64,000 nucleotides of DNA from Octopus sinensis (lineage: Eukaryota), in NCBI RefSeq assembly GCF_006345805.1, contig NC_043012.1:50654001-50718000 (forward strand). The letters are read 5' to 3'. Position numbers and translations under genes: made by a program. Below are positions 5,287-59,916 of this stretch, one piece after another. Position 1 is the stretch's first letter; every line of letters begins with the position of its first letter. The notes beneath the pieces are model-generated. The model ran no database searches and had not been told where the DNA came from. It worked only from the letters and a program-made list of their open reading frames with translations.

Positions 5287-5327
<41 letters not shown>

Positions 5328-5401
5328 TATACATATATATATATGTATATATATGTATATATATATATATATTAATATATGTATATATATATATATGTGT
5401 G

Positions 5402-5436
<35 letters not shown>

Positions 5437-5601
5437 ATAGCTATCGCCATACTAATATGGCATTCTTATAAAAATAAGAATAAAGCTGTCCGCTTATTAG
5501 CTCCATGAGGCCATCGCCTTAAGTTAGCTATTGATACACAAACTGTATCCATATAACCTTCGAACAAGGGAGGTCAGTCGCTCCACACTACTTGACCGGC
5601 A

Positions 5602-5643
5602 GCTACAGACGCGTTTCAGGGTATTGCCCCTTTTCAATGCAGC
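5602..5643 (-). ncRNA. Minimal type-I hammerhead ribozyme, U3-A8 core
   Basis: Minus strand: GCUGCA-UUGAAAA-GGGG caaua CCCU-GAAA-CGCG-UC/UGUAGC; 6-bp stem I, 4-bp stem II, palindromic ACGCGU stem III. Confidence 0.8.
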
Positions 5644-5963
5644 GTAGCCAGCCAGTAGGTGTCGCTTCCGACAATCTCTGTTCGATGGTTTTATTTACCT
5701 AGTTTCGGTGGAATACATCCACTTGTTTTCAATAATAGAAATATTAAAATTACTAAGTCTCTCTAAAAGAGAACAGCGGCAGCGTTCCCGGAAAATAATA
5801 GCTATCGCCATACTAATATGGCATTCTTATAAAAATAAGAATAAAGCTGTCCGCTTATTAGCTCCATGAGGCCATCGCCTTAAGTTAGCTATTTGATACA
5901 CAAACTGTATCCATATAACCTTCGAACAAGGGAGGAGAGTCGCTCCACACTACTTGACCGGCA

Positions 5964-6005
5964 GCTACAGACGCGTTTCAGGGTATTGCCCCTTTTCAAT
6001 GTAGC
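5964..6005 (-). ncRNA. Minimal type-I hammerhead ribozyme, second copy
   Basis: GCUACA-UUGAAAA-GGGG caaua CCCU-GAAA-CGCG-UC/UGUAGC. Confidence 0.8.
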
Positions 6006-6191
6006 TGCCGGTCAAGTAGTGTGGAGCGACTGACCTCCCTTGTTCGAAGGTTATATGGATACAGTTTGTGTATCAATAGCTAACTTAAGGCGATGGCCTC
6101 ATGGAGCTAATAAGCGGACAGCTTTATTCTTATTTTTATAAGAATGCCATATTAGTATGGCGATAGCTATTATTATACATATATATATGTG

Positions 6192-6257
<66 letters not shown>

Positions 6258-59493: not shown

Positions 59494-59916
59494 GAAATAC
59501 CTGTTTCGTTACTACCCACAAGGGGCTAAACACAGAGAGGACAAACAAGGACAGACAAACGGATTAAGTCGATTATATCGACCCCAGTGCGTAACCGGTG
59601 CTTATGTAATCTACCCCGAAAAGATGAAATGCAAAGTCGACCTCGGCAGAATGCTAACTCAGAACGTAGCGACAGACGAAATACCTATTTCTTTATTACC
59701 CACAAGGGGCTAAACATACAGGGACAAACAAGGATAGACATAGGTATTAAGTCGATTACATCGACCCCAGTGCGTAACTGGTATTTAATTTATCGACCCC
59801 GAAAGGATGAAATGCAAAGTCGACCTCGGCGGAATTTGAACTCAGATCGTAGTGACAGACGAAATACCGCTAATCATTTCGCCCGGCGTGCTAACGATTT
59901 TGCCAGCTCGCCGCCT
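59494..59916 (-). mobile_element. SINE family A dimer plus start of a third unit
   Basis: GAAATACC at 59494, 59678, 59861 (period 184/183); intact head at 59916. Confidence 0.88.

Follow-up and report, generated by a model that had tools for sequence, protein, structure and literature searches.

The inverted repeat arm that begins at position 6000 of the window (the whole stretch of 64,000 nucleotides analysed here) is part of a single insertion of a 362-bp non-coding repeat of the Penelope type, which fills positions 5434-6174 with three pieces of one repeat and is flanked by two (TA)n tracts. Its two arms meet head to head exactly where a hammerhead ribozyme is predicted to cut. We consider it probable, at roughly 60%, that this is a two-arm insertion whose joint was set by annealing at stem I of the ribozyme rather than by cleavage. 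Across the family, cut RNA supplies at most ∼2% of the passes over the site.

The features of the locus are listed below; unit positions are numbered along the sense (minus) strand, starting from window position 5797.

5291-5433, no strand: left (AT)n target tract; no target-site duplication discernible
5434-5797, minus strand: left arm, copy 1; full monomer, 361 nt in the variant present here, plus 3 nt
5602-5643, minus strand: predicted type I hammerhead of copy 1; cut predicted between 5608 and 5607
5732-5738, minus strand: second copy of the CTATTAT heptamer, at unit 60-66, where most arms of the family have their 3' end (the "tail")
5798-6001, minus strand: left arm, copy 2; 5'-truncated monomer, unit 159/161-362
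5964-6005, minus strand: predicted hammerhead of copy 2; cut predicted between 5970 and 5969
6000-6005, no strand: head-to-head joint; 2-nt exact overlap at 6000-6001, T at 6002
6000-6174, plus strand: right (inverted) arm; starts at unit 191 and runs 3-4 nt past the monomer end
6175-6247, no strand: right (TA)n target tract

Read along the minus strand, the left arm consists of the truncated copy 2 (6001/5999-5798) followed by the full copy 1 (5797-5434), and it traverses two predicted cut sites. Copy 1 terminates at a fixed 3' site of the family ("+3"), marked by the heptamer CTATTAT, and carries three rare alleles (one A missing at 265-267, G358, and T180); the second heptamer, at 5732-5738, does not serve as an end in this insertion. 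The right arm is identical to copy 1 and crosses no cut site. Since the (TA)n tract to its right is not a copy of the left flank, it has a 3' end of its own. Two differences, an indel of 1 nt and a change of 2 nt, set copy 2 apart from copy 1 as well as from the inverted arm; the 2-nt change is unique to this locus among the loci examined. A search for the source locus of the haplotype yielded 23 matches to the G358 allele, none of them with the other alleles found here. At the joint, the hammerhead core of copy 2 remains complete and is closed by a ∼170-bp duplex (5798-6170); a transcript of this segment would, in either direction, fold into a long hairpin. Elsewhere in the window, an unrelated repeat of 183-186 bp forms two-copy tandem arrays at 854-1240 and 59494-59868, with more copies near 2049, 2284, 3205, and 12433.

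The ribozyme was called by hand from its core and stems, and its self-cleavage is a prediction. In unit coordinates it comprises 155-196, with the predicted cut after 190 and the two strands of stem I at 155-160 and 191-196. In copy 1, stem I pairs 5638-5643 with 5602-5607 (6 bp, one of them G-U) and is accompanied by a U3-A8 core, a 4-bp stem II, and a palindromic stem III; in copy 2, the 5' strand of stem I now comes from the inverted arm. The core contains all the elements required for membership of the class (CUGANGA or its U3-A8 variant, GAAA, and an NUH triplet), and the U3-A8 core is present in 379 of 380 motifs retrieved with a search pattern that itself fixes GAAA and the GUC triplet. 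Core positions follow the customary hammerhead numbering, as in PMC4209133. The U3-A8 variant is described in the accessible part of that source. Scanning the window with Rfam at gathering thresholds gave no match. Stems I and II both appear in the free fold (z −2.7). One pair of stem II is G-C in the young subfamily, A-U in its sister, and G-U at 5434-6174, and variants of stem I pairs are G-U or A-U; judging from these sequences, both stems appear to have been kept through sequence changes, of which few are independent. The palindromic stem III expected of a dimeric active form is present, its hexamer being self-complementary and giving 6 bp in a two-strand fold. Older sister subfamilies (L141-L170 and L454-L469; ∼80-90% identity) have an altered stem II and the same tail, and direct internal deletions at L129, L361, and L456 have removed parts of the hammerhead or of the extended stem.

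The right arm is, from 6000 to 6173, the exact reverse complement of 5434-5607 (174 nt, 100%), and 5607 is, on the sense (minus) strand, the first base 3' of the GUC triplet (unit 191). The initial annotation had placed the start of the arm at this very base and was correct in doing so; it was equally right that the arm cannot be extended past 6000 (5999 is A where the unit has C) and that 6002 is T, the direct unit having C at 5640. The bases TG at 6000-6001 are common to both arms, and 6000-6005 agree with the continuation of the left arm at five of six bases because stem I is formed by unit 155-160 pairing with 191-196. Given this overlap and the T at 6002, the right cDNA reached at least 193, and a stopping point at 191 is not demonstrated; the overlap leaves the true end uncertain by up to 6 nt. 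The T could alternatively derive from the G158A allele, which occurs in ∼9% of arms. Such an origin is unlikely, since copy 1 has G158 and consecutive units in an arm agree at 158 in 108 of 109 cases. Another locus (L334) shares this stem I joint but retains the C, and its apparent start is 194. If two cDNA ends annealed via the strands of stem I, they would form a 6-bp duplex with one mismatch; its resolution to T would yield the locus at 5434-6174, and its resolution to C would yield L334. As the 3' strand of stem I starts at the cut site, a joint made via stem I mimics a start at the cut even when the RNA is uncut. Stem I complementarity by itself can thus put a joint at the cut site, and the joint at 6000 on its own cannot settle whether cleavage took place.

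In the 2.72-Gb, microsatellite-rich genome, the repeat has 1,100 exact matches spanning the cut site. A typical insertion lies within (TA)n and consists of two arms, 5' to 5', whose 3' ends are fixed and whose 5' ends vary; each arm carries up to about six 362-bp units in tandem, which are too short for a reverse transcriptase. The fixed 3' ends lie at unit 66 (the tail) or 3 nt beyond the monomer end; both sites terminate in CTATTAT, and (TA)n follows most of the ends shown. Among 214 distinct joints in the loci examined, 177 pair a tail-ended with a monomer-ended arm, four have two monomer ends (the locus at 5434-6174 is one of these), one has a tail on both arms, and in 32 an end is of another type or unreadable. 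The same pairing was found in 27 of 33 cases at loci not selected by their 3' end. At sites with allele frequencies near 50%, the two arms carry the same allele in 106 of 108 joints and, at another such site, in 169 of 172 (∼50% expected). Together, the pairing rule and the shared alleles suggest that one RNA feeds both strands of the target, and this rule is possibly more informative than the joint at 6000. The element behaves like a non-LTR retrozyme or a non-autonomous Penelope derivative. The head-to-head arms probably originate from twin priming at the target, and mobilization may occur in trans by a Penelope-like element. As for an autonomous partner, none of the 29 other loci of one young Penelope-like family shares sequence with the unit, and Pfam assigned no family to a protein piece from it. 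The loci L401-L430 represent a very young and abundant Penelope-like family, with proteins 90-100% identical over 141 scored places; it has a U3-A8 hammerhead-like motif of its own and a 3' region rich in pyrimidines, and no sequence in common with the 362-bp repeat.

Breakpoints were mapped in a sample that had not been chosen by 5' end. The first 100 of 358 matches to a monomer-end pattern gave 99 loci, which were merged to 96; after exclusion of 11 duplicates, of arms touching a locus edge, and of arms below 94% identity, 175 ends remained, one of which is the edge of a LINE insertion and was later removed. The sample covers part of the family, the pattern being present in 5 of 17 loci found by another route. 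A tail-end pattern (1,290 matches) is shared with the older subfamilies and was left out of the histogram. The 5' ends are scattered: two of 175 fall at 191-194, compared with a mean of 1.93 per 4 nt, and 116 of the 175 arms read through at least one cut site. The largest cluster in the sample comprises 13 ends at 238-243 (p 0.003 for the maximum), with further ones near 149-158, 201-208, 312-315, and 19-43. Joints are rich in microhomology; 57 of 86 overlap by 1-6 nt, and overlaps of 2-4 nt account for 44 of 63 insertion-free joints (18% expected).

A LINE inserts at one fixed site of the unit, 129-145, just upstream of the hammerhead. Its 5' side was seen at L081, L097, L098, L109, L119, L130, and L373 and its 3' side at L052, L097, L098, and L286; a target duplication of 17 bp is apparent when 5' and 3' junctions of different copies are combined. 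Its open reading frames contain zf-CCHC, RVT_1, and zf-RVT domains, and it looks Tx1-like. No retrotransposon targeting a retrozyme repeat is apparent among the titles retrieved by a literature search.

In the whole genome, a pattern for ends exactly at 191 retrieved 20 matches, seven of which are substitutions or indels. The remaining 13 are true ends and represent 12 events, which is a lower bound; 5-6 per base are expected (Poisson p 0.005-0.02, uncorrected for overdispersion). Nine of the events are inverted joints, with partners at 72, 101, 155, 204 (three), 231, 292, and 340, and three have no partner. Only the joint at 6000 uses the stem I partner, and 5 of the 12 events have no overlap with a partner arm, so stem I cannot account for the other ends at 191. 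The surroundings were covered by range patterns for 180-197 (a script classified 77 of 82 rows) and 201-217 (72 of 81). A pattern for 164-181, upstream of the core, was dominated by indels and by rows from the sister subfamily among the 100 of 385 listed and did not enter the counts. Other rows were read by eye (substitutions, indels, deletions, and one duplicate), and those with a variant beside the anchor were corrected by hand. Ends were captured when the test base was A or T, which gave 103 ends over 35 positions.

In this census, 17 ends fall at 180-190, 25 at 191-194, 35 at 203-206, and nine at 209-217. Among the single positions (A/T capture), 189 has two ends, 190 one, 191 six, 193 eleven, 204 sixteen, and 206 eight, which makes 191 the fourth (tied) of the 35 positions censused. 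After identical recurrent joints had been collapsed, 23 ends remained at 191-194 and 29 at 203-206. Relative to the genome mean of ∼5 ends per base (∼6 by the capture estimate), the two clusters are enriched 1.7-2.0-fold and 2.3-2.8-fold, respectively. Locally, the rate rises from 1.55 ends per base just upstream to 6.25 at 191-194 (p 8e-6 compared with 180-190, but 180-190 is itself under the genome mean). The two clusters do not clearly differ in size (25 versus 35, p 0.25) or in the number of joints with 0-1 nt of overlap, insertions, or no partner (∼15 versus ∼16), and per-base counts are overdispersed (variance 10.9, mean 2.9). Some 3-4% of the passes end at 191-194, and the excess amounts to at most ∼2%. 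No cut is predicted for the cluster at 203-206, which is located 12 nt further downstream and, in the predicted fold, follows immediately 3' of the extended stem's GC-rich portion. In the sister subfamily (10 ends from 16 rows), no end falls at 191, three fall at 192-194, and seven at 179-187.

Joints between the strands of the extended stem also occur at other offsets (192/150, 192/140, 194/155, 197/158, 201/138, 203/161, 207/151, and 207/156), stem partners being weakly enriched (12 of 68, p 0.09). When a cDNA ending at 191 was scanned for DNA duplexes, the 155-160 partner was outside the 12 best. Exact microhomology was considered as the cause of the 191-194 cluster and rejected, as its predicted relative rate is 1.0 for 191-194 and 0.6 for 191. 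Identical joints recur at separate loci: 204 with ∼230-238 (L309, L315, L316, L378, and L384), 204/286 (L251, L252, and L266), 191/204 (L039, L043, and L045), and 193/297 (L105, L329, and L333). Arm lengths differ among them where compared, so some position pairs are hot spots. Bases are inserted at the joints of L106, L095, L157, and L399, and one insert of 22 nt repeats the first bases of the arm; such insertions resemble the templated ones of microhomology end joining.

The breakpoint histogram envisaged in the initial annotation thus gave a mixed result, as ends are mostly scattered with larger clusters elsewhere, and a local cluster does begin at 191. Under the annealing explanation that we favour for the joint at 6000, two reverse transcripts would have been primed on opposite strands of the (TA)n target, and their cDNA ends would have been joined where they were able to anneal, which here would be the two strands of stem I. 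In the family at large, 5' ends are likely set mainly by premature stops of reverse transcription, plus microhomology joining; the stops are clustered, probably through RNA structure, a link drawn from predicted folds. What speaks against a view based on annealing only is that the upstream edge of the 191-194 cluster coincides with the predicted cut, which the exact-overlap model does not predict. A reading that we regard as possible but doubtful is that the right arm was copied from self-cleaved RNA. Reverse transcription would have run off at the 5' end created by the cut (191), the cDNA end would have annealed at the 5' strand of stem I to a second cDNA made from uncut RNA of the same source, and the joint would preserve a genomic trace of germ-line cleavage. 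Besides the sharp edge, the twofold excess at exactly 191, the varied partners, and the three unpaired ends argue for it, as do the conserved hammerhead core and the changes on both sides of stem II between the subfamilies. Furthermore, 10 of the 12 arms starting at 191 are first-pass arms, that is, they cross no further cut site, compared with 53 of 90 arms ending at 191-362 (p 0.05-0.07), and same-end pairs make up two of six joints at 191 but 3 of 176 others (p 0.009, post hoc), as might be if such loci use two linear RNAs. However, 191 is not the mode (193, 204, and 206 are higher) in counts that are overdispersed, the 175-end sample contains no excess, the small sample from the sister subfamily lacks an end at 191, and the true end of the joint is blurred by stem I. 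A cut at 191 should also stop both arms if they derive from one RNA, yet the partner arm crosses more cut sites in five of the nine inverted cases, which a single cut RNA could not produce; two RNAs, one cut and one uncut, would be needed. Finally, minimal Penelope hammerheads cleave poorly in vitro (PMC4209133, accessible part), and RNA-seq reads starting at the cut are absent according to the available portion of PMC11167929. The initial annotation had called the joint a fossil of cleavage in vivo; of this, the small cluster from 191 with its sharp edge stands, and the scatter of the ends and the confounding by stem I detract from it. That a small share of the insertions (1-2% of passes), the joint at 6000 included, was copied from RNA cut in the germ line is therefore to be taken as a tentative proposal. 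If it were true, the 191-194 cluster would be a genomic record of the activity of a Penelope-type hammerhead in vivo; one RNA would normally serve both strands of the target, with two start sites spaced 63 nt, and rare same-end loci would use two linear RNAs, one of them cut.

Two further explanations are much less probable. Fold-back priming within stem I, the alternative named in the initial annotation, would have one cDNA fold back at stem I of copy 2 (30-nt loop) and copy itself into the inverted arm. The geometry fits, as the arms 5798-5969 and 6000-6170 enclose just the 30-nt core, and palindromes at inverted joints of Penelope elements have been read as self-priming (PMC3846280, in the part available). 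Such a process predicts the sequence of the adjacent copy 2, but the arm matches the distant copy 1 throughout. It departs from copy 2 twice, once through the missing A, a rare allele present in 14 of 611 units across the loci examined. It should also have continued into copy 1, but the arm stops at a fixed 3' site with a flank of its own. We therefore regard fold-back as very improbable. Hardly more credible, and if anything less so, is a fold-back artefact of assembly or sequencing. Among the pieces listed from four public runs (32 of 276), no contig bridges the joint, and contigs aligned to the element and the joint never span it by 31 bases on both sides, an outcome that argues in neither direction; one record of 38 nt covers 5972-6005 only and may stem from the G158A allele. 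Against an artefact stand the different flanks, the unequal arms, the end of the arm at a biological 3' site, and the 214 distinct joints with the same layout in the loci examined.

The question at stake is whether Penelope-type hammerheads, the function of which is called unclear in the accessible text of PMC8557442, cut in living cells, and whether transposition needs cutting. The main text of PMC13282606, in the portion available, does not mention ribozymes. No mapping of Penelope breakpoints to a hammerhead cut was found in the titles, abstract openings, and passages of the literature searched, which included few subscription papers, and the accessible part of PMC4209133 does not map breakpoints to the cut. 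With ∼1,800 young breakpoints, the family puts a figure on cleavage: nearly all templates are uncut at the site (multimeric or circular). Owing to the tail/monomer-end pairing and the shared alleles, it is also a genomic test bed for a mechanism with two start sites.

Such a mechanism has a biochemical counterpart in Anolis Poseidon, for which, in the available part of PMC11167929, both strands were extended from two adjacent start sites in vitro and cleavage was unnecessary. Endonuclease-bearing Penelope-like elements leave an inverted, 5'-truncated copy with a tail at one end (PMC8557442 and PMC3846280, as far as accessible). The family described here shares with Penelope-like elements the head-to-head inverted arms, the AT-rich targets, the mostly uncut templates, and the two fixed 3' ends one tail apart, with the tail usually on one arm; it differs in that the repeat has no open reading frame, the tail measures 63 nt instead of 30-40, and both 3' sites end in one heptamer. 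Animal non-LTR retrozymes, as far as the accessible parts of PMC7229834 and bioRxiv 10.64898/2026.07.22.740005 describe them, consist of short tandem units that are non-coding and each bear a type I hammerhead; they are dispersed in high copy number and have been proposed to be non-autonomous Penelope derivatives. The tandem units with a type I hammerhead and the lack of coding capacity are alike here, whereas the core is U3-A8 rather than C3-G8 and the short arrays occur in head-to-head pairs. The Penelope hammerheads described in the available sections of PMC4209133 likewise combine a U3-A8 core with a short palindromic stem III needing a dimer, and occur on opposite strands in pairs separated by 100-700 bp; in the present family, stems I and II (6 and 4 bp) have canonical lengths, not those of the minimal type.

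In R2, an HDV-like ribozyme sets the 5' end of the RNA and the type of the genomic 5' junction (PMC3774820, accessible part). The idea that a genomic junction may record a ribozyme cut, blurred by microhomology, applies here as well, but a pile-up of 5' ends at the cut, as would be expected from what is available on R2, is absent from our sample. A different parallel is offered by LINE-1. In its twin priming, two primers from the two target strands give a 5'-to-5' joint with microhomology, and the arms cover successive parts of the RNA. In contrast, both arms of the octopus repeat begin at fixed 3' sites and span one and the same sequence.
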